A stretch of 63,770 bases of DNA, the filler included, from Hausera hauseri (taxonomy: Eukaryota): assembly GCA_046269625.1 (NCBI GenBank). It is 12 parts of 12 records of this genome, joined end to end, with 100 filler letters (N's around TTAATTAATTAA, not from the genome) between each part and the next. Parts side by side here need not be neighbours in the genome. Positions count along the whole stretch, not along the records: positions 1 to 6,888 come from JBJURY010054995.1; 11 more parts are not named here. One strand, written 5' to 3'. Position numbers and translations under genes: made by a program. How positions within the stretch are numbered: the stretch's first letter is position 1; each line of letters starts with the position of its first letter. Below are positions 4,212-63,073 of this stretch, one piece after another. The notes beneath the pieces were generated by a model, which was not told the DNA's origin, searched no databases, and saw only the letters and a list, made by a program, of their open reading frames with translations.

Positions 4212-4469
4212 TCATTGGTCTAACGATAGTGGAACATGTATAAATTTATCCGAGGTTCTGCTTTTGTATATGATTGCCTGTGGTTCGTAAACTTCGTTAT
4301 CAATAGTCACTGTCTCGTCTGTCTGAAACTTTCTCTTTTTACCACCAGAGGTTGGTGTTATTCGCACCGGATCGGAGCCCGAGATCTGAGTGATTACTTC
4401 ATCAGTCCATTTAAGTTGCTTATAGATAGCCTGGTAGCATTGTACCAAAGCTGTGCTTTGGAGTGGCAT
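4212..4469 (-). CDS. Hypothetical protein, probable accessory ORF of the large retroelement
   Basis: 85-aa ORF co-oriented with the flanking element ORFs; contains KKRK; no recognisable domain. Confidence 0.3.
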   Translation of the reverse strand: MPLQSTALVQCYQAIYKQLKWTDEVITQISGSDPVRITPTSGGKKRKFQTDETVTIDNEVYEPQAIIYKSRTSDKFIHVPLSLDQ

Positions 4470-4600
4470 TCCACAAGTTTAGTGAGTTTGTTCTTTACCA
4501 GGTTATTAAAATAAAACGCGTGATAAAGAATGAACAAAATAAGAGACAAATAAAAGTCCGAACATTTATTTTGTGGAACAGTTATTTCGTCCGCCGAGGC

Positions 4601-5356
4601 CTACGAATCGTCGGTTGATGAGAGTGCCGGGTTGTTCCTGGCGACACGACATGGACGGGTAGGCGCGTCGTCCGAACTGTAGTCCGTCGGTGTTGATTCA
4701 AGTAGTATCGGATCCAACCGGATTCGACGGCGCGGTGCTGGAACCTCGTTTGGGCTGGAGCTCAGAGCCTTGGCCTGCGGTCTGTCAATTACTCGGTGAC
4801 CGGGAATCAACTGGCTCTCCGATGGAACCAGCGATTCATAGAGGCGATCAGTTGCCGCCATCAGTCTCAAGAAAACCGGCAAGAAAACCAACGAGTCGAA
4901 AAGACGCCGATTTTCCCCGTCCTCATAAAACCTCTGGAGCATTCCGCGGGGTAAAGAATACGGGTCGTTCCGCCCCAACTTGGTGAGGTGCCGTACAAAG
5001 CGGCTTCGTTGCAGCAACTCATGTGTCGTCAAGAAATCCGAATAGGACCAACATGGGGTTCTTTTCCTGGTGTTGCGACGTCGCCTTTCCCTGGAGACTG
5101 TATCCCGCCGGGTCAGACACGGCTGGTTAGTTTGGACAGTGGAGTTGGCAGTCCTGACGTTGTTGTTCTCCGTTCCGGCGTCTGTGGTTCTGTGTGCCTT
5201 TGGAATTCGGTATCCTGGCAGGACGCAGTTCTTTATGATGTTGAACGTGGCACCTGGTTGAACGGAAACGTCGGTTGGCCGGGTTCCAGTTTCGTCTCGG
5301 ACTATAGGTTCTCCTGGTTTGGTAGTAGCTTTGGTGATCTTTGTTCCCACTGGCAT
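4601..5356 (-). CDS. Hypothetical 251-aa basic protein, probable accessory ORF
   Basis: Intact ATG-started ORF, GC-richer than flanks, Arg-rich stretch (RERRRRNTRKR), AATAAA ~30 nt after the stop. Confidence 0.5.
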   Translation of the reverse strand: MPVGTKITKATTKPGEPIVRDETGTRPTDVSVQPGATFNIIKNCVLPGYRIPKAHRTTDAGTENNNVRTANSTVQTNQPCLTRRDTVSRERRRRNTRKRTPCWSYSDFLTTHELLQRSRFVRHLTKLGRNDPYSLPRGMLQRFYEDGENRRLFDSLVFLPVFLRLMAATDRLYESLVPSESQLIPGHRVIDRPQAKALSSSPNEVPAPRRRIRLDPILLESTPTDYSSDDAPTRPCRVARNNPALSSTDDS

Positions 5357-5702
5357 GTTGAATTATTTTTCTCTTTTTGATTTCGAAAATTCTTTTTTGG
5401 ATGTTTCTTCTTCTCCGTTTTGAGTCCAATGTTCTGGACCTGCTTCGCCCTTTCGCTTTTGAATGAAACTGCTCATTGTGATTTTTATTTGAATAGTAAT
5501 GTTCAATCCTTAATCTGTGGATTTAAACAAAAGGGATTAAATCCACAGATCTTGATTGTTTTTTGTAAAAAAAATTTGTTTGATGAATCCGTGAATTTTG
5601 AGAAATTTGTGAATTTTAAATTGTTATAAAATTTCACGGGGGAAAAAAAATTTTTAAGATTTATTTTCTGATTTTATTTTAATTTGAGAGATTTAAATTT
5701 TG

Positions 5703-6813
5703 TTATAATATTTTGTAAGGTAGAACCTTACAACAAGTATCGTAGAATTTCTTTGCCAACTCCTTGTAAATATTTGTGGTCAATTGATATTTACGGATAG
5801 CCTCTTCGTGATAAAGGATATCGCGAACTCCGATTATCCGTCTGACTGGGCATTTGCAATGGTTAATCACCATTTCGAGAATATCAGCTCCGATTATGAT
5901 TTTGTCCGTTAGAACCTCCATGATTTTTCGATAAAACTCATTGGTATCCATCATTATTTATGTGTGATTCCGCTAGACCCGTTAAATGGGTATCAAAATT
6001 ATTCATCCTTTGTCGGGGAGAGATGACGCTATAGAAGACAGTTTGACCATCTAGCGTTATGACCGACCATTCGATTGGCTGCATCTGATTCCATTGGTCA
6101 TACGCTAAGTTGACGGCAGCTATGATCATATTTGCGTTTGTGACGTTTTGTATTCTTCTGTAAGGGATTGTTTTGTAGCGAAGATAATCGGGTTCCGGAA
6201 GATGGAAATATCTTCCCTCTGTGATGCTTGGTTGAAAGGTCTCATGTTTGGTGATCTCAAATGCGATCATAATTCGATTTAAAAGGGAGCGAATCTTCAA
6301 TGTATTGTCCTTTATAAATTTGGATTCAAAGGCGAGAGCATGATCCGGGTCCATATTAATTAGCTCTCCCTGTGTTGAGGTTTTGCGACTTGTCGACTTA
6401 ATATGGAATTTGTCCGCGATGTTATAGATGTTCATGGAATGAAATCTTTCCGGCAGAATTATCAGATTCTGGGGATAAAAGGAAGTTGCTTTCATTAACT
6501 GAATTAAAGCTAAGGATCGATTGATCATACTGTATCCCTTGAGATTGTTTGGGATCTGGGGCGTCTGGGGATAATTCAGACTATATGTATAGTCGTTATG
6601 GCCCACGTAATATTGACTGGCTGGGGTGGCATTGATGAGGTGAGTTTTAACGTTACTTAACCAGTGTTTTGATTTGGTAATTGACTGAATCTGATGAGCG
6701 GTCGAAATTGATACTGTCAAAAGAAATGTCAATAGCAAGTCATTACAGATTTCTAAACACAACACAACGGTTATCAAACACACAATGGTAATTGTTGTAG
6801 TTATATATTTCAA
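5703..6813 (-). pseudogene. Retroelement accessory protein with DEDD/REX-type exonuclease-like domain (frameshift near 5945)
   Basis: QPIEWSVITLDGQTVFYSVISPRQRMNNFDTHLTGLAESHI / MDTNEFYRKIMEVLTDKIIIGADI..IIGVRDI matches the REX-like fold pattern; homologous to 13990-14341 and 61605-62100. Confidence 0.6.
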
Positions 6814-6888
6814 TTTATTTCTATAGGTAACCTGATGACATGTGGTTATCTCTATTGAAAGGGTTGCATAAATAGCAATCCCTAGACT

Positions 6889-6988: not shown

Positions 6989-9237
6989 ACAGACCTGTTC
7001 GCCAACGAATGAGACCATTATTGCCGACGAAATGACGAGCGGCGGAAATGGAATTTAATGAACTTGAAAAACCGGCATAATCAGAAGGTCCAAATCCCCA
7101 TGGGTGTTACCGTTGCACATTGTCAACAAAAAAGAGGGAACAATTTGCCCGTGCGGCGATTACAGAATGTTGAACACGGAAATTGTCCCGGACGCGTACC
7201 CTTTACCACTAGTATTAGATATTTTTCAAAGATTATCAGGATCGAGATTTTTCTCAACAATAGACCTCAAAAAAGCTTATCATCAAATCCCAGTCGCCAG
7301 TAATGATATTCCCAAAACAGCAATGATTACACTCCTTCGGACTGTTTGAATATCTTTTCATGCCCTTTGACCTCAGAAACGCAGCACAAACGTTTCAGCG
7401 TCAGATTGATGTCGTTTTGTCTCGTCTTCAATTTGCATACCCATATATTGACGATATACCTATCGCGTCTCCTAACAAAAGTGACCACGAACAGCATTTA
7501 CAACTTGTCCTAAAACGTCTTAATGCCTACCATCTTCAAGTTAATTGGGAAAAATGTACAGTCTTCACATCCTCAGTGAGATTCCTAGGTCATTTAATTT
7601 CAGAAAAAGGTCATTCACCTCTTCCAGATCGCTTAACGCAAATTAGAAATGTTTTATTACCTACAACAACGACGGAACTCCGAAGATTTCTAGGAGCACT
7701 TCATTTTGTACACAGATACATCCCGAATTGTTCAGCATTAACCGCTAATCTGTCGATTTTAAGTTCGGGAAAGAAACAAGCAAAACTAAAATGGACTGAG
7801 GCAGTAAGAGCAGAATTTCAAGAGCTCAAAGAAAAATTACAGGCATAGAACTACTGGCTTTTCAGTTCCAAGCGCAAAATTATTGCTTATTACTGATACA
7901 TCAATAGTCGCAGCGGGCACCGTACTTCACCAAGAAGTTAATGGTCGAAACGAACCTTTAGAATTCTTCTCCAAAAAGTTTTCTGAAGTCGAACGTAGGT
8001 ACTCTACGTTTGATCGAGAATTATTAGCAGTAGTTATGGCGGTTAAACATTTTAAGCATATTTTGCAGGCTCGAACATTCACTTTGCAGACTGATCATAA
8101 ATCTCTCCTGTATATGATTAACATGAAGCAACCTTCACTCAGACAAGAACGCAAAATTTCTTATTTGTCCACTTTTCAATTCGATATAGTACAGATTCCG
8201 GGAATACAAAACATCTTCGCAGATTTCTTATCGCGTCCCCTAGCTTCACTGACTTTTTTTTCAATAATTGCGGCAGACGAACTTCGAGAAAAGCAGCCCT
8301 CAAAGGAAGATTTAAGCCATTTCAAGTCCGTCAATTTACTGGATGGCATACATTTCGATACCTCAATTCACGGTAGGAAAAGATCGATACCTCATAACTC
8401 GTTCCAAAAAAAGTCATTCGATTACATGCACCGACTGCATCATCCGGGAGCAAAAAACACCTAAAATCTCCTACACAATCAGGCTATATGGTTTTTTATG
8501 CGAAAGGATGTTCAGAATTGCGTTGATCAATGCGTACCGTGCCAAAAATTTAAAGTAAACAAAAATATTAAACCACCAAATTTTCATTTTCCTTCTACCT
8601 CGCGATTAGAAACCGTACACTTGGATTTAGTTGGCCCTTTACCACCAGCCCAAGGACATCAGTATTTACTTACTATGATGAATCGATCCACTCGATGGCC
8701 AGAAGCAGTTTCTATAAAACGTACAGACGCCGAAACAGTAGCCAACGCTTTTGTAAATACTTGGTTATCACGCTATGGCTCGCCTAAACATATCGTTACC
8801 GATCAAGGAGCCTAGCTTGAGTTAGCTTTCTTCAGATCTTTAGTAAACATGTTAGGAATCACACACGTTCATCCGTCACCTTACCACCCTCAATCAAACC
8901 GCTTAATCGAACGTTTTCACAGAACGCTGAAGGTGTCGTTAAAAATCTTCGTCGAAACCAATCCAAACTGGCTGTCAATTCTCCCATTAATTCTCTTAGG
9001 TTGGAAAAATACTCCATCAACATCAAATGACTGTTCCCCAGCACAAGCTTTTTGGAACATCTATCAGGGTACTTTTTGACGTTGCGGAAAGTGGAGGAAC
9101 ACCTACAGACTAGAATATTAACGCAGCAAGATAACATTTTATTGACCTGAATAATGACAAATTTTGCAGAGTGCTAAACCAGGAAAAGACATTTCTAACA
9201 AAGAAACTGTATGAAGCAAAGTTCGTTTGGGTGCATG
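6989..9237 (+). mobile_element. Ty3/Gypsy (CsRn1-like) pol remnant: RT, RNase H, integrase
   Basis: CGDYRMLN, DLKKAYHQIP, MPFDLRNAAQTFQR, YIDD, TDTS..G.VL.Q, YSTFDRELLA, TDHK, H...HPG/C..C, HLDLVGPLP, TDQG, IERFHRTLK; many stops and frameshifts; ends at CATG 9234. Confidence 0.95.
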
Positions 9238-10641
9238 TTAAATCCATTTAAATCGGGAGAAGATTAATTCGCAAATAGAAAAAAATAGCAACTAACGGAA
9301 TATAATAATTATCTTTTATTAAATCCATAAAAAATTCAATTTTTTTCAATATCTCTATAACAAAAAATGAATTGCAGGTACAAATTTCTGTCGTTCACTT
9401 ACAATATCGACAAGTATATATCAACAAAGAATGAGTTGTCAAGAATGGCAAAAGCATTTGTTACACGCTCCACCAAACATTATGGTTCACAAATAAATAC
9501 TCATCAGTTTTATAAAATCCGAAGATGTATGAAACGATTTAGAGTAAAGATAAATTGACGTTGTTGTCGTCTGACTGTAATTTAAATCTTTTTCTGTCAT
9601 ATGTTAAAAAATGAAATAATACAATGTTAATGTGTGTACAAATTATAACGAGAAAACATTGAAAGAATTTGATAAAAGTTGTCACAATTAAATATCCAAT
9701 TGCGTTATCTGTACTTGTAAATGGTGAAATTGAAAGAATTGATAAACGGCATCAACTGGCATCATGTAAATTCAATTCTAAAATACATCTCTTTGGGAAA
9801 TTTCATTTGTAAACTTGGTAATACGGTGTGTATGACATTCGAACTACATCAATTTCGGCTTTCATCTTTATTCTTTTGTTGAATCGATCTAAGTTACACA
9901 ATTCTTAATCGGCTTTGTTCCATTTATTAATCAGAAACATTGCCATGGAACATTGGGAATTTTGAAACAGATTGTTGTATTATTTTTCTTGACAAGTCAG
10001 CTCTTCTGGCCCGAGTCCGCGGCATCACAGTCAGCACCTCTGGTTGGGACGCAATCGTGCCCGCGGTAACACGCTATACCCCCGAAATTGCACATATTTT
10101 CTTCCCCATTTCTCTACCCTTACAAAATAAACATGTCTTTTCCACTATCTGTCTTTTCTTTAAAAACGTACATATACCCACACAACGCACATGCACCAAT
10201 TCTCAATTAAATGACCCTCAATCAATGAATCTCCAGTTTTGTCGAAATGCCGATAATAAATCATTGCAGCACAAAGCAAGGATCTCCCCGGTAAGGAAAA
10301 CAAGCTATTACAACTCTGATACTTTGGACACGCCCATCTTTTACACACCACACTACAAACCGGACTTCTCTGACAAATTCCTTCCACTATCATGGCTATT
10401 TGAAGACGGACATACCCAAACTTATTACATCTATAAATTAACAACAGTTGCCAAATTTTCGTACATACTACAGCTGCAAACATCTTTAACTAACTTCCGC
10501 CTCAGCTTTAAAGGACGCTTTCTTCAACAATCAGACACAATAACAAGTTTCATTCATTCATTCTCTACATCTATACTCACCCTACACTCCCGTCTGTTAG
10601 GCGGATCTAATCCAAAAACATCTAAGGAGCAACAAGATTTT

Positions 10642-11092
10642 ATGGACATTACCACCATAAGTGTGCCATTGAATCAGCCTTTAACACTGCCGTCGACTGT
10701 AAATCTACCTTGCGTATAATATTTCGTCGACAAACAGCACTCCGGCCGGACATGGTTAAATTTTCATGCGGTTCGGTTAAAATCAAATAATATAGTTGAT
10801 TCGTTCCTCAAAGCGAACAGTCTGCTCATACTTTTACATTCTAGCATTAAATCGCAGCTTCCCAGTTTATCGGAAATCTTCCAAAGTGGCTACGCATATA
10901 AAACTCTCATTAACGCTACTTTGAAAATTACTGAATCATCTCTGGACAACATAATACATAAATATTTCAATGACAACACAATAGGCACATTAAAACCATC
11001 TAAATTCCTACAAACGTCGTTAACTCAATTGAGTACCCTTGGCGTTAATCAGGCGAACAACGCAGACTTATTACGCAGGTATTTCCTGCAAT
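10642..11092 (+). pseudogene. Gypsy (CsRn1-like) gag N-terminal fragment
   Basis: WLNFH..LKSNNI.D...KA and LKPSKFL..L..LGV...NADLLRRYFL are shared with the gag copies at 34050-34900 and 45303-46100. Confidence 0.8.
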
Positions 11093-12621: not shown

Positions 12622-13989
12622 ATTCATTTAACGTCTCTAGATAGGACTAGAATTTGTAATTTGAAGCATTCACTGCACGCAGTACCCGCAAGCTAAAATC
12701 AAGTGCAAACTTCTAACGAGAACGTTAGAACTTATCTGCTTAAATTGAACTTGTTAAATTGATCTTATTGTTATAGTTGGGTGTTGGATAGGGCCCACCT
12801 TCAACTACTAACACTGGTATAAATAACCATATAATTGTTTTTATTATATTCTATGATACTTTTCTTGGGGTCATCCAATACAATTACTAACGTCCACTCT
12901 ACAATTGTCTGTTTGTCCAAATGTGGTATTCCTGTCATTTTGATTTGTTTCTTTAACTGTAAACAAACTTGAGTGTCTACTGAGCTATTTAGTCGTTTGA
13001 TTCCACTTTTGGATTGAAATATGGGGACTAGGTATTTGCCGATTTGCGTGTATTCTCGGGCATAGCCATCATTGCTTATGATTCTCCTAGGGACAGTTGA
13101 GACATAAAATATGGCTTCTTTAATATTGCCTTTGCAATAACATTCAGCCATGACAAGTATTTTTGTATATTCCTTAACTTGGCCAAATTCTATTACTACT
13201 ATGGGGACTAGTTCTTCCAACTTCTTTTTGAGAACATTCACTTAGTTCTCGGGAGTTTATAACGACAGATTTTCATTCACTTTTTGTGGGGTTCTTCGGC
13301 TTTTTGCAGATTCGGTTTAACCTAGAGGCTTATTGCTTCCTCTTGAACATTTAGTGCAAGACTGTTGCTAGATGGGTTGGTTTGATTGTTATTGGTTTTT
13401 TTCTTCCTGATTATATATTTAAAAGGAAAGTTTCGTCTTCGTAGGTTTGGCTTCCTCTGTTCCTTTCTGGTGCGAAACTTTATGTACGGTTTCAGACTGA
13501 TCACAATGCTTAGAGATTTGCGGTTTTGCGAAGGGATTTCGTCGTTCCACTTGATTTTAACAAGTCGATGGAATTTCTCGGACATTTCTGCATGATTTTA
13601 TCTGTCTCTGTTTGGACAACTCGACTGGATTAGTTTGTACGGTGATTTGAAAACTGTTGTGTCATTGTGGGTAAATTTGTCTATGTGCGGGGTACTCGCT
13701 GAATTCTTTTCGGAATTTCTGCATCAAAATTTTTGGGTTGCTGTCGGACATCACATTTTGCATGGGGTCTCTGGGCTTCCGTTCGTGTTCCCATAGTAGA
13801 GAAAAGTAAATATCTCTTACGAGTCCCGTTATCTGGCTTGCTGACATTAACCTGTGGAAATGGAAATATTCGCCATCCATGGCTTCTAACATCATCTTGA
13901 AATGGGATTCCCGTGACATTGGGGAAGCAAACACCCTCTCTTTTTCATTAGGATGCTTTCTGTTAGGCTCGCGACTGTCGAACTGCGGT

Positions 13990-14341
13990 TCAAGTGGAAG
14001 ATTCAGGCTATATATTCTTGTCGGATTCCTAGCCTTTCTAGCATCTTATGCACTCGAAATCCTGTTGCAATGTATCTATACAAACAATGGCTTACGTCCT
14101 CTTGTACTTCTAGGAAATCTTTACCCTTTTAGAATTGCAACTTTGTAATTTCTGTAACATCAGAAAAGGTATCCTTCACTTTAGTTCTGGGCCCTATTAT
14201 CTTGTTTATTAGCTCCTCTCCGTTTACACTTCTCATGGAGACTTCTATTGGTGAATACCACCCATCTTCTTTCTCTCCGTAGTTTACTGCTCTAACCCTG
14301 GTATTCCTGCCGTCTAAGACTAGTCTAAACACTCTGTCCAT
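13990..14341 (-). pseudogene. DEDD/REX-type exonuclease-like domain (second copy)
   Basis: SPIEVSMRSVNGEELINKIIGPRTKVKDTFSDVTEITKLQF*KGKDFLEVQEDVSHCLYRYIATGFRVHKMLERLGIRQEYIA* aligns with the 61605 ORF (GNDIFEVSKELIQWLLGTIVVGIDTHRMLQLFDIHTNYLAG). Confidence 0.65.
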
Positions 14342-16190
14342 TCTGCTCTATTTCATCTCCCGAGGGTTTTTGTAGATATAATATTGGTGGTAAGGGTTTC
14401 ATTATCTGTATATGTAAAGTCAATTCAAACATAATTTAGGTTGGAATTTCAGCAATTCTAAACTCTAAAGCATAATCCATGAGGCTGGAGCAGCATAGCA
14501 CATAAGTACTAAATTTCCATTGTTGACCCATTTAAATAATCTAGGGCTGTCCTACAATTCTGTAATGGATTTCACCATCAGCAGCACGTATGTACATTTG
14601 CTGATGTGTCGGTTCGTATAGAATTATGTCTCTCAAAAGGTATTATCGTGCATCCCTTGAGTTTCTCATTGCGTATAAACTAACTAATCGGCTTTCTTCT
14701 AAGCCCCATTTTAATCCATAGGGTATTCTACTTTCTTGGTCAATTTCTACATGGGTTTTATTTGTCAGATTTTCTCCAATTCGACAATATAGACTTTTTG
14801 ATGGGAGATTTAAGACTGTCACGTGCTGTTGTAAGAAATCATCTATCTCGTTTCTAGGACTGTGTGCTGAGATTTTCGCTTTTTCGGCATACATATACTT
14901 CTAAAGTAAAAATAAGGGTCAATCATAAAACAGGTCATCGTTTCGAAACAAAACATTTTCTCTGTCTGATGATAGGATAACCCGATCTCTAGTTATCAGA
15001 TTATGCTCTCATAAAGTTCGACTTGGTAACCTTTCAGCCGTTTATTTGCTCGCTGATTTTTGTAGCGCTTATTACAATTTTTGGAAACTAGAAAAATCTT
15101 CGCAGTTATAATGACAAAGTTATTATCGGTAAGTTATTCGGCTGGATAGAAATGTTTGTGGTAATTCAATTTTCTTTATATTGCATTGCTCGAATTTCGT
15201 TGTTAAGAGTTCGTACTGTGAAAGTTTTATGTTTTCTATCTTCTGCAGTAATTTGGATTATGTAGCTCTCTTGTGGTCATAGTAATTTGCATTCCGTTTC
15301 CTGACTATTCCTCCTTAAAATTATAATTTGGTTAGTATGCAAAGTACGGCACTCAGTTTTAATTTTGTAGTCCAATGTCTCCTCAACGTAAAATAAAATT
15401 TTATTACTACGTACCAAAAATGTAACAGGTTTATTTTCTAGTTCTCTTTGGGGCATTAAAATATGGCGCTTAAAATAATAGATGGTTTTCTCGTAGTTAT
15501 TGGAAGAGAAATTTTCCATAATCGAGCTTCTGCATAATACTTTCTTAGATAAGTACTTGGCTTGTTTGGGTAAGTGTTATACAGATCAAATTGTAATTTG
15601 TATCCGTGACCTAATAGTATCTCACAACACGGATTTGGCTGAATCTTTGCCATATAACAATACTTCACAAGGGGGCTGAGTTGTTTACAGGTACTAATTG
15701 AGTGGAATATTCTCTGACGTCTGGTAGTCCTACTTTGATTTTCATCTGGATGCATTGGTTTTTCTCGTCTTCTGATATACTAATTATGTTTTCATCTAAT
15801 ATCTTTTTCATCGCATCTATTGACTGAACAATATCTCTGAAATCGTTTATATTTATTTGCTCTTTAGTGGGTATCACTAGTTTTAATTGTGGCCTTATTG
15901 CCGCTTGTGTGCATCCATCGTTCTTGTAGAACATTCGTATTGTGAATGTGTAAGAGTTCCCATAGTTTATAGCACAACATTCTTCTTGAAGTCCATAGGG
16001 AAAATCACAATGGGTCATTACCTTCTTGTTCGCGTTCCACAGACCTACTTGGTATTTTACTGCTACTCTGACGGGTTTTCCTGTACAGAATTTTATACAG
16101 TTCCTCATAGGATCTATACTCCGAGCCTTGAAGTGGTCTAGAATACTTATGTTATTTCTCTTTATGCTTATTAATTCCTTTTCCATCCAT

Positions 16191-16655
16191 TTATTTTGTA
16201 CTCGAATCACATCCATTATTCCTATTTGGGCTTTTACATTTCGGACATGCGAAGCGATTAAGGATAGTGCTAAGATTATCTTTACTTATAATATCGGTCT
16301 GGTTACTATTGATGAATTTTTGATTTCTTCTTTGCTTCGACTCGGATTTTTTTGTTCTTATTGGCCTCCTTTCTGTTTTAACAATTCTTTGTATTGATAC
16401 GACTTCTTTGCCATTTTTGTCAATATAAACTGTAGTCGACGTGGTTCTGATAACTTCATAAGTCCGTCTTCCAGTTCTAGTGAGCTTCAGAGATTTGTCT
16501 TTCTTGGCTACCGGGTAATGTACATAAACCCAATTTCCCTGTTCTCGATCATGTGGTTTAGCCTTCTTGTCGTATTGCTTTTTAAATTGCTCTTGATACC
16601 CTTGGGATAATTCTTTTGCTACTTCCCAACACTTTTGTTGTTTTGCCCGTAACAC
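16191..16655 (-). pseudogene. Ty3/Gypsy integrase C-terminal (GPY/F-type) region
   Basis: Q..FKKQYDKKAKPH....GNWVYVHYP......KL.....YEVI....TTV.I.......VSIQRI. Confidence 0.8.
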
Positions 16656-16760: not shown

Positions 16761-19354
16761 ACCCTTATATCGATGATATTCTAGTCCTTTCATCTTCGGC
16801 CAAAGAACACAAGGAACACCTTCGCGCAATATTCCAACGTCTTAACCACCATAATCTCCAAATCAATTTTGACAAATGTCATTTCTTCAAAAAGCGCATT
16901 AACTTTTAGGCCACGTTATTACACCAGACGGTCATTTTCCCCAATCAGATTGAATCGAAGCTCTAAAAAACATCCAGTTGTTACGTATAACCACCGAAAT
17001 GTGTAGCTCCCTTGGTACACTACACATTGTACATAAATACGTACCATATTTCTCCGAATTGACAGCACCATTCGCACACTTAAACGGTGGCAAAAAACAT
17101 CAGCTAATCCAGTGGACACCTGAATTGGTCAACAAATTCAATAAGCTACGCGAAGGAATCAAAACCGTCGATATTCTAGCTTTCCCCAAGCCTGATGCAG
17201 AACTTATCCTTACTACAGATGCGTCAACCATTGTTATAGGCACTGTACTCCACCAGATCTACAAGAGAAAAAACCAACCACTAGAATTTTTCTCTCGCAA
17301 GCTAACAGCACCTGAAACGAGATATTTCACGTTCGATCGAGAAGTATTGGCCATCGTTCTTGCTTTAAAGCATTTCTCCCACTTACTTGATGCTCGTCAT
17401 TTCACTCTACAAACCGCTCAATAGCTCTTACTTAACATCATGGCTATGAAACACCCTTTTACACGCCAAGAACGACAAATATCATACTTATCGACATTTA
17501 ACTTCGATATTAAACATATTAACGGGGTCAGCAATTTAGTTGCTGATTTTTTATCTAGGTCGGTTAGTTCGATTAACTTTTCACCAATCTTTACGCAAGA
17601 TCAACTTCAACAGAAGCAGCAATCTCCGGACATGCTTAATTCTTTCAAATCTTGCACAATCGTTGACGGCGTGGCTTTCCGTGGCCATTCCGTAATAATT
17701 CTAGCACCATCATTGCAAAGGCAAGCATTTCACAGCGTGCATTCACTACAACATCTTGGTGCTAAAGCCACTTTTCGTTTACTTCATCGACAAGTAATAT
17801 GGCCATCAATGCGTTCTGATGTGCAGGCATGGGTTAAAGAGTGTGTGGCTTGCCAAAAATACAAAACAGCTAAGCATTTAAAGCCACCACTGTTCCAATT
17901 TCCCTGCACATCGTGTTTCGAGTCCGTGCATGTCGACATAGTTGGCTCTCTTCCTCCAGACAACGGACATCAATTCATCCTCATCATGATGGACCGTTCC
18001 TCGCGATGGCCAGAAGCCATTACTCTGCGGAGCACAAACACCGACACCATAGCTGACGTTTTCATTCGCACATGGATTAGCAGGTTTGGATATCCTCGCT
18101 TCATCATCCCGGACCAGTGTACACAGTTTGAATCCAACCTGTTGAAATCCCTTGTTAACCGATTGGGGACCCACTACATACATACTACGCCTTATCGCCC
18201 CTAATCAAACGGACTTCTAGAACGTTTCAACCGAACATTAAAAACGTTACTACGAATCCTCGCAGAGTCCAACACTAGTTGGACTAATCTTCTTCCGTTC
18301 GTCCTCCTCGGCTGGCGGAACACTCCGTCCACTTCTACAAGATTCTCACCTACTGAAGCCTTATTCGGAGCTCCTGTCCGATCATTATTCGAACTAACCG
18401 CCCTAGGCGACACTCCCACGAATGAGACGATACGGGCGGCGCAAAATCACTTCGTCAGGGTCAGCAAAGATTTGTTCTGAAGACTACTTCACAAAGACAA
18501 AACATACTTACCCGAAGATTTGTATTCGTCAAAATTCGTATCGCTAAAGAATCAAGCGCCTTGGGGTTTCCAGCCACGGTACCTGGGCCCTACAAACTGA
18601 TACAGCTACACTCACATAATGCCATTATCTCTAAAGACGGCAAAGACCTTACAGTACACATTACCAATTTAAAGTCCGCTTTCTTTGTCGACTACACCGT
18701 ACCAACCGACACTTCAACCTCTTTTCATACTTCTCCACTCCCTGTTATCTCTATATATATTGCTATATCATTTCCACCTTCCTCTTCTGTGTCTAGCCCT
18801 GCTCCACCATTTTCTACACTTTCTACTTCTATTTCTACCTCTCCCTCCGTATCGTCTTCCTCTCCCACTCTGTCACTCAACACAATTCCAATCGCTACTC
18901 CAACTTTTTTTCATTTCCTTTAACCGCCACTACACCTTTCACCACTCCTTCGTCTTCTAACACTCTTTTCAATGCTTTTAACCATCCGTCTTCAACATTC
19001 CCTCTTCCTTCTTCGTCTTCTTCTTCTCTCTATTCCGACTCATCTTCACACGACACAACACCTACACCAAAATCTACCAATTTTTCCCCCAACATAAATC
19101 TCTGCAATCAGACACATTGCATAAAGACACAACACGCAGAGTCACATTCAGCAAGTATAGCAGGGTAAAATCAGCCGAAGGTATTCAACGTCTTATTCAC
19201 ACTAAGCTCAACTGACACAAGCACTTTTCGTTTTGAGATTTTTTCTCTCTATCCACTTACCCTTCATAGTTTTAACTTTGCCACGAGGGATGATGTGGCG
19301 CACACAGCGGCCGGCGCTCTCTGGCAGGCCCCGATCTCCCTCCAAAATTGCATG
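16761..19354 (+). mobile_element. Ty3/Gypsy (CsRn1-like) 3' half: RT end, RNase H, integrase, pyrimidine-rich tail, PPT and start of 3' LTR
   Basis: YIDD at ~16766, TDAS, FDREVLA, HVDIVGSLP, LERFNRTLK, GPY; purine tract GAGGGATGA (19285-19293) then TGTGGCGCACACAGCGGCCGG (19294), cut at CATG 19351. Confidence 0.93.
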
Positions 19355-19393: not shown

Positions 19394-19972
19394 TTGCGTA
19401 TCGGCAAAAAATCGAATAAGAATATTGTTTGGATTAACAAAACCGAAAGCGGAAAGCCATGTATTCCATGGATCCATGCAACAAATCAAAGTTTATTTAA
19501 GGCAAGTGATTTTCCGGATGATGATGATTTAGATGCTGACAATAATTTCTGTCGAAATCCGAAGAATTTGATGGATATGCCATTTTGTTTCGTTGATTAT
19601 GAACTGACTAGAAAAGAAATCTGTTCCATACCTACTTGTGTCCCTATTAAATTCCTTGGAAATTGGATACAGACTTCCACGAATTATTTAAATGTAACTT
19701 CGTGGGCATTAAACGGAACTATGGATACTACACATAGAGTTAATCATTCCTGCTCTGCTACAAATGTTGAAGAATCGTCTCCTTGGAAAATAACATTTCC
19801 AACTGATATTTATATTGCATACTTTGAATTTAAACTATCCAAACAAAATGAGGTGGTGATATTTTTCAAATCCAATTTGGAGTCAACGTTTGATGATCGT
19901 CCTTACACGGTGTTGGACAATGGACTATACGTTACTAATTGTTACGATTTTCCTTTTTATTCGTACTTGTAA
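19394..19972 (+). CDS. Kringle-domain protein fragment (possibly pseudogenic)
   Basis: NKTESGKPCIPW....NNFCRNP....PFCF......EICSIPTC is a canonical kringle pattern. Confidence 0.8.
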   Translation: MRIGKKSNKNIVWINKTESGKPCIPWIHATNQSLFKASDFPDDDDLDADNNFCRNPKNLMDMPFCFVDYELTRKEICSIPTCVPIKFLGNWIQTSTNYLNVTSWALNGTMDTTHRVNHSCSATNVEESSPWKITFPTDIYIAYFEFKLSKQNEVVIFFKSNLESTFDDRPYTVLDNGLYVTNCYDFPFYSYL

Positions 19973-22324: not shown

Positions 22325-24690
22325 ATGTGGGCTAACCCGGTTAACCCGGCTAAGCAAGTAAGGACTGATGAAAGTGCGGAGAAAACAGAAGCGGAAAAAT
22401 CATCATTTGTCCTAACCGACTGCTCCCAAAATGAACAGCATCCTGGGGTGCCTGTTTCAGTTGATTTGCGGTATCCTCGTGGCGATACGGTTTTGGTTTG
22501 ATCTTTGACAAACTCAATAATCCCGGCGAGGGATCAAAAATGCAGCCTTGTAATCTTCTTCAACTGTATGCCAGCCATGTGGACATGAAGCTGGAAGAAT
22601 ACGGGCACATGCTAAGCACAGAGAAGAAAGACTCACTATTGCAGTCTAGATCTTACCAGTGTTGGTTCCGTCCACAGCATACAAGTAAATTTCCCTGGGT
22701 TGCGTACTCCCACAAGTATAAGAGACTATTCTGTCGTGCATGTGTCCTGCTTGATTCTTCCTTCAGCGGAGTGTTTGTCACCAAACCTCTGCCAATTCAA
22801 CAAGTTGACAGGTGATTCAAAGAGGCGCGAAGGTCTACAATATCATGATGTATCACCTGATCATCTTCTTGTCTTTATCACAATGATTCCAGCTACCCGC
22901 CTTGTAGCAAGAAATTCGGAACGTTCGGTAGCTGGACAAATGAATACCGAATTCTCAAGATTGCAGTAGAAAAGCAGTGGTCTTTTACGACCAGTCATTG
23001 ATGTCATTCGACATTGCATCGTTAATGCTCTTCCACTGCGCGGCCATAGAGACGACAATGAACCTACATTGTTCACTGAATGCGGAAAACGCAACTTCAA
23101 GGAAACATTGGCCATGGTCTCTCGTTACTACCCTGACTTGGCATCACATATCACAAATGGACCAAAAAAATGACAAATACGACTCGAAGACAACACAAAA
23201 CAAACTAATTAATATTTGCGCTGACCTTGTGATAAAAGAAATTGTTGTCGAAGTGAAGAAAGCGACGTATTTCAGTATAATCGCTGACGAAACAGCAGCT
23301 GTAAATCAGCAGGAACAGCTTGCTGTTGTGTCAAATACTTGAGATTATTGGATTTCAAGTTGAGGAGGACCTTACTGGTGAAGGGCTGGCTGTATAGATC
23401 ATTGATATGGTTGTAGACAGTCTTGACCTAGATCGCAACTATTTGGTAGGACAGAGATATGACAGCGCAGCAGCAATGACCGGCGACCATAATCGAATGC
23501 AGTTCGTTATTCGAAGAATGGAAGGTTGCGAACTTGCCATATACGTTCACTGCACAGCCCATACACTCAGTCTCGTGCTAGCCGATGGTACCAAGGATCC
23601 GCTAATCCGAAGCGCAATAGGTTCCATCAAGGCGACCGTTAATTTTTTCAAGGACTCTCCAAAACGATTTCTTTTGCTCAAGAGTGAAATAGCAAAGTTG
23701 GACACCAAGCGTCGGCGTCTTATGTCATTTTGCGAAACTCGTTGGGTAGAACGGCACGACTGCATCATGTGTTTTCGGGAGCTACTTGGCGCCATAATTG
23801 CATCCCTTACTACTATTTAAATGTGACCTGATAAAGGAAACGGCACAGTTGCCTCATAGCTTTTACATCAGCTAAGTAATGATGTATTCGTAATTTCAAT
23901 GGTCATTCTAGATAAAACGCTAGCCGTCACCAGTCTTTCAGAAACCTTCCAAATGAAAGACTATAACTTGGTACAGTGCATGGAACTCGTAAAGCACGCA
24001 AGTTCAGTGCTGCAGAGCTATCGATACGATCATGAAGTGTTTAATAGATGGTTTACAGAAGCTGAAGAGCTGCTGGGCAATGACATTCACAAACCACACG
24101 TTGTTGGACGTCAAATCATACGAGCCAATCCAAATGCACAAGATGCCCGTACTTTCGAATTTCTTCCTCTCATTCCTACATTGATATTGTCTTCAGTCAG
24201 TTGGACGAAAGATTTCTTGGTCACCAGAAGCAAGCTCCCTGCATCTCTTCCATTCTCCGATCCGCTGCTGCTCAGTTACATTTGAATATAGTCGTCCAGC
24301 CGTCACATTTTATGAAAAATATTTGGATCGCCCATTGAAAGTTGAGTTGGAGTTTGGCCTATGGCAATCTAAATGGTCCAACTACAGCAATACTAATCCT
24401 CCTCCGTCAAAAGTAATCGAGGCTTTCCCCTGCTGTAGCAACCAACCCGCATTGACAAATATTCGCACACTGCTGCTTATCTTCGTAGCTATACCTGTCA
24501 CCAGTGTTTCAAGTGAAAGAGTATTTAGTCAGTTGCGCGTCATAAAGACATATCCGTGCTAACATGACCGAAGACAATCTCAGTAGTCTCTTAATTGGAC
24601 GAATTCATCGAGACCGTGTGATGCGGATTAATTTAAAATCTATAATTGACGTATTCAGTGAAAAGAATCGGCGACTTGACTTTAGTTGCT
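22325..24690 (+). mobile_element. hAT-superfamily transposase remnant (ZMYM1/P52rIPK-like, DUF4371 + hATC)
   Basis: FPWVAYS...LFCRAC, FSIIADET, GQRYDSAAAM, YVHCTAHTLSL, CETRWVER, PVTSVSSERVFSQLRVIKT; multiple stops and frameshifts. Confidence 0.9.
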
Positions 24691-24946: not shown

Positions 24947-25888
24947 TTGTTCACTATCGGCTCTTACAGTTGTACATCGAGTTAGGTGCTGTAGTTGAGA
25001 AGGTACATCGGGCCGTTGAGTTTGACCAGGGTTATGCCTTTAAGGATTATATCAATCTAAACCCTGCAAAGAGGGCTGCACCAAATAATCCTTTCAAAAA
25101 GACTTTTTGAAGCTTAAGAAGAATAGCTTACACGGCAAAACAATTGAAAATCTGCTGAATAGGTCAAACTTGAGGCTATGCAATAATGCTAAAATGCTAG
25201 TTACATATGCTAGTAAGGCCCAGTTTAAGGAGAGCATTATAATAGCCGATGACCTGGTTGTTGTTCTCCTCGACATATTCATAATCACATTAGATAGGCC
25301 CTTATACATCAGTCAGGCAGTACTTGATTTATCCAAGTTACAGATGTATGAGCTGAATTATATCGAGTTGGAGACATATAGACACCAGTTTCAGTGTGAA
25401 CGTAATATTGTTGCTGGTGACACAGACAATTTTGTCATCGAATGTCGTGGTGTGGACTTAAAATCACAATTGTTACCAGCAATGATAGCTAATGAACAGC
25501 TAGATACGTCAAACTATGACAAGAGTGATCCGCTATACTCGACTCGCTTCGCAGCTGCAATTGGGAAATTTAAAGACGAAAGCAAGGGCTGCGTTCAGTA
25601 TCAGGAGGCGATTTTCCTACGGCCAAAATCTTATGCCCTCAAAACCCAAACCAGACCAGTTCTCAAATGCAAGGGCGTAAATCTCAAGCAGACAGATTTG
25701 CAATTCGACAGCTAGTTACAGGCTTATGAATCCGGTTGTAGGACCATAGTGGACCAGGCGCGAATCGGGACTAAAATTACCAACTTATGTCGATCAGCAC
25801 AAAAAAGAAAGCATTGGATCCATTCGACGACAAACGACAGTGGATTGAGGAAAACAGATCAGTTGCTTACGGATATTATTGTACTTAA
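24947..25888 (+). pseudogene. Polinton/Maverick protein-primed DNA polymerase B, C-terminal part
   Basis: KLKKNSLHGKTIEN, P.YI.QAVLDLSKLQMY, AGDTD, IGKFKDE, LRPKSY, KCKGV, FDDKR...AYG. Confidence 0.9.
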
Positions 25889-29959: not shown

Positions 29960-31963
29960 CATTCGATAAACAGGAACGACTTGTACCTGATCACGACCAC
30001 TTTACCGGACGATACCTGGGAGCAGCATGCCATTCATGCACTTTAGTATGGCGCGTGCAGCGATTCCTGCCGGTGATATTTCATAACTTCAGGGGTTATG
30101 ATTGTCACCATATTCTGAAATAGGCAATTAATGAATTTCCACACAGGGAACTGTCCATAATCCCAACAACGATGGAGAAATATCTATCTCTGCCGGCACG
30201 CATAAATCGGTTTCAGGTGCGATTCCTTGACTCATTACAGTTCCTCAATGAGTCTCTAGCAAATCTGGTAAATGCTCTGACGGATGTTCCGTTAACATCA
30301 ATGCAGTTTCCGATGCATATTTCACGTAACAAAGGCATATTCCCGTATGACTTTGCAGTATCGTACGAGAGGCTGCAGACAACAGAAGAATTGCCGCCGC
30401 AGTGGCCCAGTGTAACAGAAGATGAACATATCAGAGCACAGGAATCTTGGTCAGAGCTCGGATGCAGAAGCATATTGGATTGTATGCTCCAGTATTTGAA
30501 ACTGGACGTGTTTCAGACATTCCGGACTAAGGCGTTGGCGGAAAATAGGCTGGAGCCGCTCAACTTTTACTCAATACAGGGAATGAGTTGGGCGTCGACT
30601 CTGACATCACTGGACCGGGACATTGAGCTGTTGCAAGACACAGAAATGTACCGACTGTTTGATTTTGGTATTCGTGGCGGCATGACGTTTGTCAACAAGC
30701 ACCACGTAAACAGTGATGATAATACCACTGCCCTTGCCGTACGGTTCATTTGAATGGTTAACAGACAAGCAAGATCTGGAGGCAATATTGGAAAATTTAG
30801 CAACAGCAAACACGGCAGAAAACAGCTCATTCAGCTACATGATGGAAGTTGATCTCGTGGTACCGGATGAGTTGCATGACGCTTTGGACCAATTGCCTGT
30901 CGCACCAATCAGCCAATGTCCTCTCGGCGGCTCAAAGGTAAAGAAACACCTCACGACGCATGAACCGAAGCTGAATTACGTGGTCCATTGGCATCTGCTA
31001 CAATTCTACATGCAGCTCGGTGTACTCATCACGCAGCTGCATTACGCAATAAAATTCAATGAGGAGCCGATATTCAAGGCATACATTGACGGAAATTTAG
31101 AGCCGCAGCTGGTACGAAGTTTGAAAAGAACTACTACAAGTTGAAAATAATTCTCTTTACGGCAAAACGGTAGAGAACCTCAAAAAGTGACTCAATTTGC
31201 GCCTATGTAACAACGAAAAGCAACTGGTTACGTACACCAACATGGCTCAGATCATGCGGTCAATGAACATTGCCGATAGATTGATCGCCGTGCTGTTAAA
31301 CAAGGAAAAGTCGTACTGGACCGACCAAGCTATATCGGACAAGTGGTATTGGACCTTAGCAAGTTGAGAATGTACGACCTCCAGTATCGCGACGTGGCAC
31401 GTTACCGGCAAATGTTCGACGGCTGTGAGATCAGTATCGTTGCCGGTGACACAGACAGCTTTTTCCCTGAGGTGAAAAACGTCAATCGCGACCAACTGCT
31501 CCGGCAAATGATGGGAGATGAATTACTGGACACGTCCAATTACCCACAGAATCATCCGCTGTATAGCAACGCCATCACAAACAAAATCGGCTGCTTCAAG
31601 GATGAAAGAGAAGGCCGTGTTTAGTACCAAGAATGGATATTCCTGCGCCCAAAGTGCTACAGTCTCCTGACGGACTGTGGACCAAAAATGAGGGCAAAAG
31701 GCGTTCAGCTGTCCCAGACGGAAATAAGCCACGGTGATTATCGCCGTATCTATGAAGCAGAGGCAGCAGAAGAAGAAAACGGAGGACGAAAAGGAGGAGA
31801 AGGAGGACAATCAGTGGCTGTGTGTCAAACGATTATACGATCGATTGAGCACCAGCTGTATACTATAACAAACACAAAAATCCATTTGTCATGTAATGAT
31901 GATAAGCGAAAATGGGTGGGGAGAAACAAGAGTTGGGCGTATGGGCATTGGCGTTTGAAATAA
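29960..31963 (+). pseudogene. Polinton/Maverick protein-primed DNA polymerase B (with endonuclease VII-like zinc module), degraded
   Basis: DHDHFTGRYLGAACHSC, FHNFRGYDCH, FLDSLQFLNESLANLV, KGIFPYD, YLKLDV, GIRGG, YGKT.EN, AGDTDS, IGCFKDE, LRPKCYS, AKGV, DDKR..AYGHW. Confidence 0.93.
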
Positions 31964-48113: not shown

Positions 48114-48515
48114 TTGAAAGACATTGACGAACATCAAAGCATTCTTTGGTCTGCACATTTCGTCGTTGAGCATTCAGAATTCGAATTTGTCATCATTACC
48201 AGGAGATCTAATCAAACCGATAAAATGCCGTCTGACATTAAAATTGTCCTCACAAATAACATAGATTTGAACGAATGTCCGATGGTTTATAACGTGTTGT
48301 TCAAACGTATTGAAAATGCTTTAAGTATGGTAAAAATCGGAAACGATTATTTCTACCCGGAAAGAAAAATCGTTCTTGATAGACGCAGAATGGAAATTTG
48401 GCCAGGATATGTAACAAGTATCCACAATTTCGATGGTTGGTTGCTGTTGCAATGCGATGTATTGCAAAAACTTGTTTGTAACGAAAATAATGTTGCAAAA
48501 ATGATTATATACATG
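48114..48515 (+). CDS. piwi: Piwi-clade Argonaute fragment (N-domain end/L1 linker)
   Basis: CPMVYNVLFKRI..LSMVKIGNDYFYP..I....RMEIWPGYVTSIHNFDG.LLLQCDV; cut at CATG 48512. Confidence 0.85.
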
Positions 48516-48551
48516 CAAAAAAAAAAACCACCCGGTTTTCTACGCCATTTT

Positions 48552-49379
48552 CTATAGCGATGTTAACCAGACGGAATGAATGTCCAACACGCTTTCCTTT
48601 GTCGCGTGCTCGTAAACGCTGCGCGATAGCAGCATCGCGTAAACCACCGCGCGCGTTACATAACCCAACGTTTTATCTGGTGGAATGAATTGTTTTCGTT
48701 CGCACAACACGTCTTGTGCAACGCTTTGTACCTTGCGCAAGTCTATACGATTTCGAGCTTTCCTGAGCCACGCTTCGTCGAAGTTTGTACTCGTACAAGA
48801 GTGGTCGGCTTCCCGGTCGGATCTTTCGCAGCAGCCGCGACTCGCCGTGTCGCTACACCACATTTTCTCCAGCACGTGCACCAGAACCAACTCCACCGCG
48901 GCTATCGTTTCGTTGCGATACCATTTCGCCATCGCCGGTAATCCCAACGCATCTAACTCGGGCGGATGTTCCGCGTATGCTTTTAATACAGCCGGGGTGT
49001 CCATTGTGTAATACTCACTCGCGTCAGCAAAACGGGTGTACAACTCGAACGACGCGGCAAAGGCTCGAAGGATCGTGCACATCGCAACGATCGTCTCGCT
49101 CCGCGATCTCGGTTGCCTAAGCGTGTATTCCGCTGCGTGTAGTAACCCGCCCATAGACAGATGATCGATGATGGTCTTTACGTTACCGACGTACCACGGC
49201 TCGGTGCAATGATATCGTACGGGGTGACACGCAATCTCCCGCTTTCTAATTTCCCTCCTCAGTATTTGAAAAACACTCCACGAAACGTCGGCCAAGCACC
49301 TTACATCGTCGTAACTCAATACGTGTATAACCGGTTGGCCTTCTTCGGCCAACTCGCGAAACCCTTGATGCGCGGCCAT
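48552..49379 (-). CDS. Intact intronless 275-aa virus/Polinton-like hypothetical protein
   Basis: CpG-rich ORF from MAAHQG, AT-rich promoter-like leader, C....GC.......H.C cluster reminiscent of Polinton accessory proteins. Confidence 0.6.
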   Translation of the reverse strand: MAAHQGFRELAEEGQPVIHVLSYDDVRCLADVSWSVFQILRREIRKREIACHPVRYHCTEPWYVGNVKTIIDHLSMGGLLHAAEYTLRQPRSRSETIVAMCTILRAFAASFELYTRFADASEYYTMDTPAVLKAYAEHPPELDALGLPAMAKWYRNETIAAVELVLVHVLEKMWCSDTASRGCCERSDREADHSCTSTNFDEAWLRKARNRIDLRKVQSVAQDVLCERKQFIPPDKTLGYVTRAVVYAMLLSRSVYEHATKESVLDIHSVWLTSL

Positions 49380-49523
49380 GCTAACGCGTACCTTGCGTAC
49401 GCTGACTTTCGTTAGTAATATATATAAAAAAATCGACAAGTCACACCGGTTAGGCTTTTTTTATTATGTACACAATAACAGCTTATGCGACCTTTATTAT
49501 ATAGGTCTCTTGATGATTCTTAA

Positions 49524-60638: not shown

Positions 60639-62473
60639 CAAATAACGTCACTGTCCAAAAGTTTATACTGTAATTATTTTCGAATTGTCTGATTTCCCGC
60701 TTATCCGTCCAAATCCACGCTTTCTTGATTAATTCTGTTGTTAATAACGTCTTCGTCATCTGGCTTGTGTCCTGATGGAATACGTTCAATAAGTATGAGG
60801 ACTGGTTGCGAATGCTTGATCAACAATAAATATTTTAGTTGTCCATTGAAGAATGTTCCGGTCACCGACTCGATACTATTAGAAGTAATCAACTTGACTC
60901 TTAATTTTGTACTGAACTGAACTCCGTAATTTACGGGTAGTTTCAGTACTACTGTCGATTTTTGATAAGGTACTAAAAATACTGGCTTTCTGGCCGCTGA
61001 TATATAGCACCAATAAATACATTTCGTTCGGAATTCCATTTGGAGAGCCTTTTGACAGAAATAGTTTTTCCCAGATAGTAAGGACGGACAATTTGGTGAA
61101 TTGGTACTGGTAAGTTGAGATAATCCTTCTTTATTAACATACCAAAATTGAATGTCACTTTTTCTGTATTAACCAAACAACGATCAATTTGTTGTGATAA
61201 TTTGTCAGAATTCCATAGTACTGTTTGAATTGCAACATCTTTATTTTGAGGTGGATGAGTTCATCTTCCAATTTCAATATCTTCTTCATTATCGGTTTTT
61301 GGAGCCAAAATTTGTTGAATGTCCATGTTATTTATTATATTTTCTGAGCATTCCGATTCTGGATCCTCTAGTGATATATTTTCTGGGGTGTTGAGTTCCA
61401 TATCTGCTTCTATGGGATCATCTATATTGTTTCTGTTATTAGGGTTAACAACACAAGCTTCTATTTTGTGCACCTAGGCGAAATTCTCTAAATATTTGTC
61501 TCGTCTGTAAAACAGTTTACCTATGTCTATCACATTCTCTAGTGCATTGTCTGGCATCCAATTTACTTGTGTCAATTCTCTGATTGTTTGAATTATGTCC
61601 ATTGTCATGTCCAACTTCCCGTCACTATGTTACTCATAGATTTGTCGGACCTAAATTTTGGCAACTTCAATTCTTTGGCCACATTAGTAATGCCTATTGT
61701 ATTGAAAGTAACACCTGTAACTTCAGGATGTTTTAGAATGTCTATAACTCCCGCTAAATAATTTGTGTGGATATCGAATAATTGTAACATCCTATGCGTA
61801 TCTATTCCTACTACAATGGTTCCCAATAGCCATTGTATTAACTCTTTTGATACTTCGAAGATATCATTTCCATGCGATTGTAAAGTTTGAAAATCAATTC
61901 CGTGCCTGCCCGTATTACAATTGTGAATCCTTTCTCTGTTAACGACGAGTGTAATATATAAAATTTTTCTTTTCACGTCAGATACGATGACTTCTAGTGG
62001 TATCGGGGTTCTGTCAGCCATGTAACCTAACGACAGGGTTAATATTCTAATAATGTTTGATTGGCTGGTATGTAAGTAATTCAGTCGTGAGTCCTTCATG
62101 ATGTCTCGTGGTGTCTGTGCCAATATCATGGGACGGGGCATTGATAAATGCTTCTTTGGTAGTAACCACTCGATCATGAGGATTGATGGTAGCCTATTTG
62201 GACAAAATTGTGTAAGGTTGACGCTGATGGGCGTATTTATGGCCAACGTTTCCTCCTCAAATAGTATAGCAATGTTAGACATTACATATTGTAGATTTTT
62301 CGATGTTTTAAGGACACCAGTGCCTCTTGCCACATGTATTATCAATCCGTCTATAGAAGGACATTTGGTGATGAATTCTTTAAACGATATTTGATGTGAT
62401 TCAGTGAAAGTAACAATTTTAACGTGACGGTTGACTGTCGGTCTGTATTTCAATTGATTTGGTATTTGCGTAA
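60639..62473 (-). mobile_element. Accessory region of giant retroelement, collinear with 12801-14700
   Basis: Bounded by CATG on both sides; contains the 282-aa ORF and downstream ORF pieces 61261-61473, 60973-61176, 60701-61039. Confidence 0.6.
61605..62453 (-). CDS. Protein with C-terminal DEDD/REX-type exonuclease-like domain (third copy)
   Basis: IPLEVIVSDVKRKILYITLVVNRERIHNCNTGRHGIDFQTL...FEVSKELIQWLLGTIVVG; upstream LPSILMIEWLLP..MPRPMILAQTP matches IPT*IMFELTL..KPLPPILYLQKP at ~14360-14450. Confidence 0.65.
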   Translation of the reverse strand: MKYRPTVNRHVKIVTFTESHQISFKEFITKCPSIDGLIIHVARGTGVLKTSKNLQYVMSNIAILFEEETLAINTPISVNLTQFCPNRLPSILMIEWLLPKKHLSMPRPMILAQTPRDIMKDSRLNYLHTSQSNIIRILTLSLGYMADRTPIPLEVIVSDVKRKILYITLVVNRERIHNCNTGRHGIDFQTLQSHGNDIFEVSKELIQWLLGTIVVGIDTHRMLQLFDIHTNYLAGVIDILKHPEVTGVTFNTIGITNVAKELKLPKFRSDKSMSNIVTGSWT

Positions 62474-63034: not shown

Positions 63035-63073
63035 CACAGTGATGTGGTTTAATGCTGTTCACTAACTAAAAAC
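63035..63073 (+). promoter_or_regulatory. 23-bp-spacer recombination signal sequence
   Basis: CACAGTG + 23 nt + ACTAAAAAC. Confidence 0.85.

Follow-up and report, generated by a model that had tools for sequence, protein, structure and literature searches.

Accessory DEDD domains are already known from long terminal repeat (LTR) elements. The Vesta and Juno LTR elements of bdelloid rotifers encode one in a DnaQ-like accessory open reading frame (ORF3) downstream of pol (PMC5408684). As far as the accessible part of that paper goes, ORF3 is an RNase D-like DEDDy protein with intact invariant residues, the elements lack a true env, and no partner domain is mentioned. The elements described here also carry their accessory region downstream of pol, and what is new in them is an ISG20-type pseudo-exonuclease joined to a beta-helix-like partner. 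They were found in a window of 63,770 nucleotides, filler included, from the Hausera hauseri assembly GCA_046269625.1. The window is made up of 12 unrelated contigs with N spacers; the three copies of the domain lie on three contigs and are hence not neighbors.

GAG-ENV-POL errantiviruses are likewise Ty3/Gypsy elements with a gB-type env between gag and pol, and are known from Platyhelminthes, Nematoda, and Bryozoa (PMC13524379, in the part available). The main text of that paper does not contain the terms "exonuclease", "DEDD", or "readthrough"; its supplements may list the present elements unannotated. The planarian Gypsy element Burro (GYPSM1) has a polyprotein of more than 4000 amino acids (aa), an env in frame between gag and pol, and many accessory domains tied to ubiquitination. 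According to the accessible text (PMC6431247), its extra domains (MATH, BIR, BCL2, and dUTPase) precede Pol, whereas here the extras follow the integrase and none of those families was matched. Maelstrom, EXD1, and Exuperantia share a DEDD fold without catalysis, but they are host genes of other DEDD subfamilies and serve host RNA pathways. The best profile and structural matches are to the DEDDh group of ISG20, ISG20L2, REX4, SDN1, and Pan2 (PF00929), from which the element copies differ in lacking the catalytic Asp, Glu, and His, in being retroelement-borne, and in being joined to a beta-helix-like domain. A full-text literature search, outside subscription papers, Repbase entries, and supplements, returned no ISG20-type pseudo-exonuclease and no such two-domain module in retroelements.

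The carriers of the domain are three related families of giant env-bearing Gag-Env-Pol Ty3/Gypsy elements, named B, C, and A after window copies 1, 2, and 3, respectively. In all three, the nuclease fold has lost catalytic residues and is under purifying selection between element subfamilies. By analogy, we read the degenerate ISG20/REX4-type fold and its predicted cupin- or 2-oxoglutarate (2OG) oxygenase-like partner as an accessory protein that would bind RNA ends without cutting them, or act as a decoy, for the benefit of the element, and give this reading a probability of about one half.

The fold was first proposed from sequence motifs in a first-pass annotation, as a REX4/ISG20-like DEDDh scaffold, and is borne out by a sequence profile and two independent models; the carrier element, the partner domain, and the expression signals were not part of that annotation. 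A profile of 43 copies matches ISG20L2 (E value 4e-7), SDN1 (1.5e-5), and ISG20 (1.7e-4) in the PDB. ISG20 or ISG20L2 is the top structural match of both models. The family B-led model (mean predicted local distance difference test score, pLDDT, 68) aligns with ISG20 at Z 14.9 (root-mean-square deviation, rmsd, 3.4; 150 residues aligned), and the family A-led model (mean pLDDT 73) at Z 17.9 (rmsd 2.3; 149 aligned). Exuperantia is also a structural match, at Z 11.1. Family profiles used alone match ISG20L2 weakly (B, E 0.003; C, 0.04) or, for family A, give no match in the PDB. The domain was missed by single-sequence searches of Pfam, of a word-indexed protein set, and of the PDB. A PF00929 search of the element copies gave no match, and scans of viral and metagenome contigs gave no relative. 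The arenavirus NP exonuclease domain, which the annotation had named as a loose parallel, ranks second in a feature search; the parallel remains a loose one, as the NP domain is an active nuclease.

ISG20 requires D11, E13, D94, H149, and D154, and each single loss strongly impairs it (PMC10085690, in the part available). All residue and junction counts reported here come from loci fetched from the best matches, and so describe close subfamilies rather than every copy. The ExoI DxE motif is absent, as annotated: the Asp is found in 0 of 170 sampled copies (A, T, or V instead) and the Glu in 0 of 170 (N or S). The ExoII Asp is found in 0 of 164 copies, one of which has Glu; the position is mostly M or A. 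It lies six residues past the Gly of an annotated "G.D" motif, whose Asp is conserved but is not the ExoII Asp. At ExoIII, family B has His in 0 of 51 and Asp in 0 of 48 copies, with Leu at both positions; the register for this family is confirmed by aligning it with six intact REX-type proteins as anchors. Families A and C show no HxxxxD at ExoIII, where the register is uncertain and the C rows are incomplete. Arg at 52 and 54 and a basic residue at 136 are the commonest residues in all three families.

Selection was estimated as the ratio of nonsynonymous to synonymous divergence (dN/dS) from pairs with dS above 0.3, with saturated pairs left out; the pairs are not independent. Median dN/dS at dS 0.3-0.8 is 0.12 in A, 0.12 in B, and 0.16 in C, and at dS above 0.8 it is 0.09, 0.06, and 0.07. 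Close pairs have higher values, 0.15-0.38. In a loose first look at the assembly itself, two of 17 candidates matched PF00929, one a DnaQ of bacterial origin and the other an ERI-like exon of a fish; thus, this look showed no high-copy family whose site is intact. Profile comparison of the domain with the bacterial DnaQ reached no significance.

The module is wider than this genome. A profile search of 1.84 billion representatives gave 463 proteins at E up to 0.001, of which the best 150 were examined. The partner-domain profile also matches 32 of these 150; three of the 32 are closely homologous to B or C, and one of these three has a RING finger. At the five catalytic positions, 14 of the 32 keep all residues, 17 keep none, and one keeps one under strict scoring (the full score accepts Asp or Glu at ExoII; six rows have Glu at the last position and three rows are incomplete). 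Inactivity thus appears to be lineage-specific and all-or-none, and this pattern among the public relatives, all known from protein sequences alone, implies that the fold is kept without the chemistry. The annotated conserved pseudo-nuclease therefore holds for families A, B, and C, with residues lost and dN/dS low, and not for the wider family, in which 14 of 32 module proteins keep DxE.

The predicted beta-helix domain always precedes the pseudo-exonuclease in families A, B, and C and makes up the 175-190 residues ahead of the nuclease fold. Profile comparison shows homology of A with C (96%), a weak match of A with B (50%, E 2e-4), and nothing significant for B with C. One model, with middling scores, gives a double-stranded beta-helix resembling cupins and 2OG oxygenases: Z 10.3 to prolyl hydroxylase (rmsd 2.9, 127 aligned), 10.3 to ALKBH6, and 9-10 to many cupins. 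Foldseek places the model near the N-terminal domain of vaccinia C16 (8ag3, E 1.7e-4), a likeness that is one structural match. A feature search of the partner domain returned unnamed clusters only. A check of all three families, made without residue-level structural alignment, found no HxD/E iron motif in the core of the predicted beta-helix; the conserved His residues of the core lack D/E at +2. The predicted 2OG-oxygenase-like fold would have parallels in a virus and a mobile element, namely in C16 and in the AlkB domain of orchid Gypsy elements. The orchid domain is described in the accessible text as an active demethylase in its own ORF, unlike the partner domain, in which the iron motif was not found (PMC9289625). 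Farther along, families A and C have in common a C-terminal domain of ~200 aa (locus L021, 493-1110, minus strand; locus L120, 1075-1740, minus strand), followed in C by a RING finger. This domain has no match in the PDB.

The three window copies are real: the exonuclease profile matches the minus strand at 5733-6165 (in two frames), 13830-14329, and 61605-62087, and nowhere else in the window. The annotated motifs are located at 6123-6100 (IAAVNLAY), 14296-14276 (VRAVNYG), and 62045-62022 (ILTLSLGY). Homology of the copies holds for family profiles of 14-15 natural copies each, which match mutually at 93-97% probability (E 3e-7 to 1e-11); pairs of single copies match weakly (copy 1 against copy 3, E 0.009). 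All three copies are decayed: copy 1 has been hit by a 1.25-kb insertion as well as a frameshift near 5950, copy 2 contains stops, and copy 3 is truncated at its 5' end and contains stops too. The parts of the copies are as follows.

4215-4478, minus strand: copy 1, remainder of ORF2 (ExoIII helix and tail), pushed away by the insertion; 64% identity with a family B ORF2 over its residues 388-477.
4480-5735, no strand assigned: unrelated multicopy repeat within copy 1 (40 scored of 1093 candidates).
5733-6165, minus strand: copy 1 (family B) pseudo-exonuclease domain, from ExoI to just short of ExoIII, by profile match.
6123-6100, minus strand: copy 1 ExoI strand, by motif position.
6169-6699, minus strand: copy 1 upstream "IPN.LK" domain, by profile and model; its family A homologue is a predicted double-stranded beta-helix.
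6714-6732, minus strand: copy 1 site resembling a splice acceptor, with a branch-like pentamer, a pyrimidine run, and an AG; family B coding constraint starts here.
6733-6888, minus strand: copy 1 in-frame linker with a predicted hairpin at 6861-6882; the conserved family B UGA would fall just past the contig end beside it.
12849-13208, minus strand: copy 2 C-terminal domain, common to families A and C; in other C copies a RING finger comes after it.
13830-14329, minus strand: copy 2 pseudo-exonuclease domain (family C), interrupted by stops, by profile match.
14343-14852, minus strand: copy 2 upstream beta-helix-like domain, by profile match.
14880-14998, minus strand: copy 2 junction, with the UGA at 14998-14996 (the codon right after it has decayed to a stop) and a downstream acceptor-like site.
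15480-16625, minus strand: copy 2 upstream region, with the integrase end and the post-integrase membrane-protein region.
60707-61317, minus strand: copy 3 C-terminal domain.
61605-62087, minus strand: copy 3 (family A) pseudo-exonuclease domain, by profile match.
62100-62504, minus strand: upstream beta-helix-like domain of copy 3, truncated by a join that is probably chimeric.

The repeat inside copy 1 holds a 253-codon frame without a Pfam match.

Families A, B, and C have thousands of candidate copies in the assembly (3001 for copy 1, 1931 for copy 2, and 3363 for copy 3), and each window copy gives at least 150 matches among its candidates. One family A contig has a single frame of 4293 codons that encodes, in order, a zinc knuckle, a Monjiviricetes-type fusion glycoprotein, a protease, a reverse transcriptase (RT), an RNase H, and an integrase, followed by hydrophobic segments, the two-domain module, and the C-terminal domain. 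The env is of gB type (PF24664, E 6e-75) and lies ahead of the protease. The order of protease, RT, RNase H, and integrase and the Gypsy-type RT place the elements in Ty3/Gypsy (Metaviridae). The two ends of one family A contig carry a 259-nt direct repeat (94%), which represents the LTRs; this evidence covers family A only, and most contigs end inside LTRs. Family B has the same order by its frames and 25-33% cross-matches, with the module in a second frame of 477 codons, and the order in family C, with the RING finger at the end, is pieced together from fragments. The RTs of B and C are just 33-42% identical to that of A. The three form one clade, with SH-like approximate likelihood ratio support of 92 in a quick tree of 74 rows and of 100/100 in a tree of 34 rows (nine element RTs and 25 public proteins picked from 120); the latter gives no firm order within the trio. 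The pseudo-exonuclease domain is found in 0 of the 120 RT-related public polyproteins.

After the integrase, all three families have a second membrane-protein-like region (a signal-like segment, ~350 aa, and a transmembrane segment), for which Pfam gives no match (L021, 2700-3800, minus strand; L210, 1551-2900, minus strand). Some elements lie head to tail, with ~0.8-1.3 kb from one end to the next gag (L024, 5625-6955; L088, 2594-3403; L071, 7092-7965). Upstream of the family A module, conserved CpG-rich words (CACGTG, CAGCTG, and TGAYGTCA-like) stand within the AT-rich element, which suggests an internal promoter or enhancer.

Family A carries the module as a fusion with Pol. In family B, 51 of 56 copies have TGA as the junction codon, and CGG or CGA comes next in 48 of 55; in family C, 44 of 50 have TGA, with CAR (43/50) and YTA (47/50) after it. 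These contexts fit viral readthrough of type II for B and type I for C (PMC2754532). True terminal stops are mixed (TGA in 13 of 33 in B and 9 of 23 in A). The family B linker has four main lengths, each a multiple of three, is in frame in 52 of 56 copies, and contains 4 stops in 3389 codons, fewer than the flanks do. Strong constraint starts at about codon +63, yet the first conserved ATG is at +125.

Other features argue against readthrough alone in family B. Fixation of third positions is 0.81 up to +62 and falls to 0.55 beyond it, and 55 of 62 copies have an AG across codons +62/+63 after a pyrimidine run; A is present in all 42 four-fold codons there (control, 238 of 520). Family C has a similar acceptor-like site in 34 of 48 copies, ahead of a conserved ATG. 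The predicted junction hairpins show little covariation, with a double change in 3 of 22 and 4 of 26 pairs. The word CAGCTGA, within which the family B stop lies, is found in family A as well, out of frame there; some of the conservation of this stop could therefore stem from an element acting at the DNA level. Readthrough as the sole route is weakened by the acceptor-like site and the third-position conservation. From these sequence patterns, a spliced subgenomic RNA is the probable source of the module in B and C, and UGA readthrough has somewhat better than even odds; splicing is at least as likely as readthrough, and the two are not mutually exclusive and may both operate.

In the reading favored here, the element lineage would have captured the fold a single time, from a REX-type gene of a cell, ahead of the divergence of A, B, and C. 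The module is fused with Pol in A and would be made from spliced subgenomic RNA, UGA readthrough, or both in B and C; it would then be released from the polyprotein or a membrane tail. It would bind RNA 3' ends or host silencing factors and so help the element RNA to escape host decay or silencing, and the RING finger of family C would ubiquitinate whatever is bound. A binder role is suggested by strong selection after loss of the metal ligands, by absence from ordinary Gypsy elements, and by the joining of a RING finger in one family. Inactive DEDD proteins that retain RNA binding work in piRNA pathways, as stated in the available part of PMC5408684. RNA binding and a counter to RNAi or piRNA defence had already been put forward in the annotation as possible roles. 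Several points weigh against a binder of this kind. The counter-defence role is drawn from analogy, hydrophobic segments stand ahead of the module, and the active relatives (14 of 32) are known as protein sequences alone. The B-led model is moderate, with pLDDT 39-46 in its other four models, and the beta-helix match is middling (Z ~10), with no match supporting it when the partner domain is searched by sequence. The last helix of family A keeps an Asp in 40 of 41 copies and Asp or Glu in 36 of 41, and the alignment of ExoIII in families A and C is uncertain. A broader proposal is doubtful: that the module is widespread in animal retroviruslike Gypsy elements, active in some lineages and repeatedly turned into a pure binder, the dead form being a suppressor of piRNA or RNA-decay defence made by readthrough and splicing, with the RING finger destroying a host factor.

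A role without any anti-host action is possible, if tentative: the module could be a structural or RNA-chaperone part of the element cycle (in assembling particles or in keeping hold of the genomic RNA, the tRNA primer, or the ends of the cDNA), or it could serve the beta-helix domain as a scaffold. Pol fusion in A and readthrough-type stops in B and C would fix the ratio of the module to Gag-Pol and bring it into particles, and both domains are always together here; however, most Gypsy elements do without the domain (0 of the 120 polyproteins), the RING finger points to host proteins, and the conserved splice acceptor points to a free protein. It is unlikely that the module is still an enzyme, through a rebuilt active site or with the partner domain as the enzyme, because the ExoI and ExoII acids are lost in A, B, and C, no acidic residue is shared at a catalytic position, and the beta-helix core has no HxD/E, even though 14 of 32 relatives have a full site, the last helix of A keeps acidic residues, and orchid elements carry an active AlkB-type domain (PMC9289625, in part). 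Very unlikely is a domesticated or antiviral function for the host, spread by the elements. Such benefit has been proposed generally for retroelement accessory domains (PMC6338049, in the part available). ISG20 is antiviral in vertebrates. Against it stand the constraint between divergent subfamilies, the dN/dS of close pairs, and the stops in many copies: constrained subfamilies with decayed close copies are what selection during element replication and decay after insertion would be expected to give. That the domain is a neutral relic of a formerly active exonuclease is the least credible account; all three window copies are broken, but dN/dS of 0.06-0.16 across subfamilies at dS up to ~2 largely refutes it, and many copies have long open frames and dead homologues occur in other data sets (P0121-P0123).

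The assembly (869 Mb in 909,086 contigs) is a mixture, with six near-complete COX1 genes from different animals, to which we give labels such as fish, snail-like, and spider-like from our own reading of the sequences; at least six animal mitochondrial genomes are thus mixed in it. Mitochondrial fragments also come from a lineage with ATA as Ile and AAA as Asn (table-9-like), a code that we take to indicate flatworms or echinoderms. A flatworm host is likely, and the elements may belong to it. On the last contig, the element part has a summed depth of at least 33 per bin in run X1 (18-32 for long pieces), and the adjoining fish T-cell-receptor V segments have a depth of 1-7. This contrast implies that the elements belong to the dominant organism, and the depth step rules out fish as the host. 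The two V segments, of beta type and with recombination-signal-like ends, are joined to an element fragment at 62500-63640 in the window, where depth falls about tenfold; the join is probably an assembly chimera. Also in the assembly is an AT-rich contig of bacterial origin that carries genes for DnaQ (dnaQ) and carbamoyl-phosphate synthase.

Elsewhere in the window, decayed Polinton-like fragments of a protein-primed-type DNA polymerase B lie at 25089-25712 and 30124-31960. Ordinary Gypsy pol fragments and hAT-like transposase fragments, the latter label presumed from motifs, lie at 6989-11092, 16761-18400, and 22465-24560. A fragment at 48114-48554 presumably resembles a PIWI N-terminal region, also by a motif; the adjacent 302-codon frame (48555-49460) is unrelated to it and has no Pfam match. 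A kringle-domain exon is found at 19394-19969.

Counter-defence proteins encoded by animal transposons have been the object of much searching, and to our knowledge few have been established. In the present case, strong selection maintains a dead nuclease fold in a highly abundant clade of elements, and the module occurs in nature in both active and dead form, which offers a ready comparison for what the fold does without its chemistry. GAG-ENV-POL elements gain an unannotated post-integrase region and a possible dual route for its expression.
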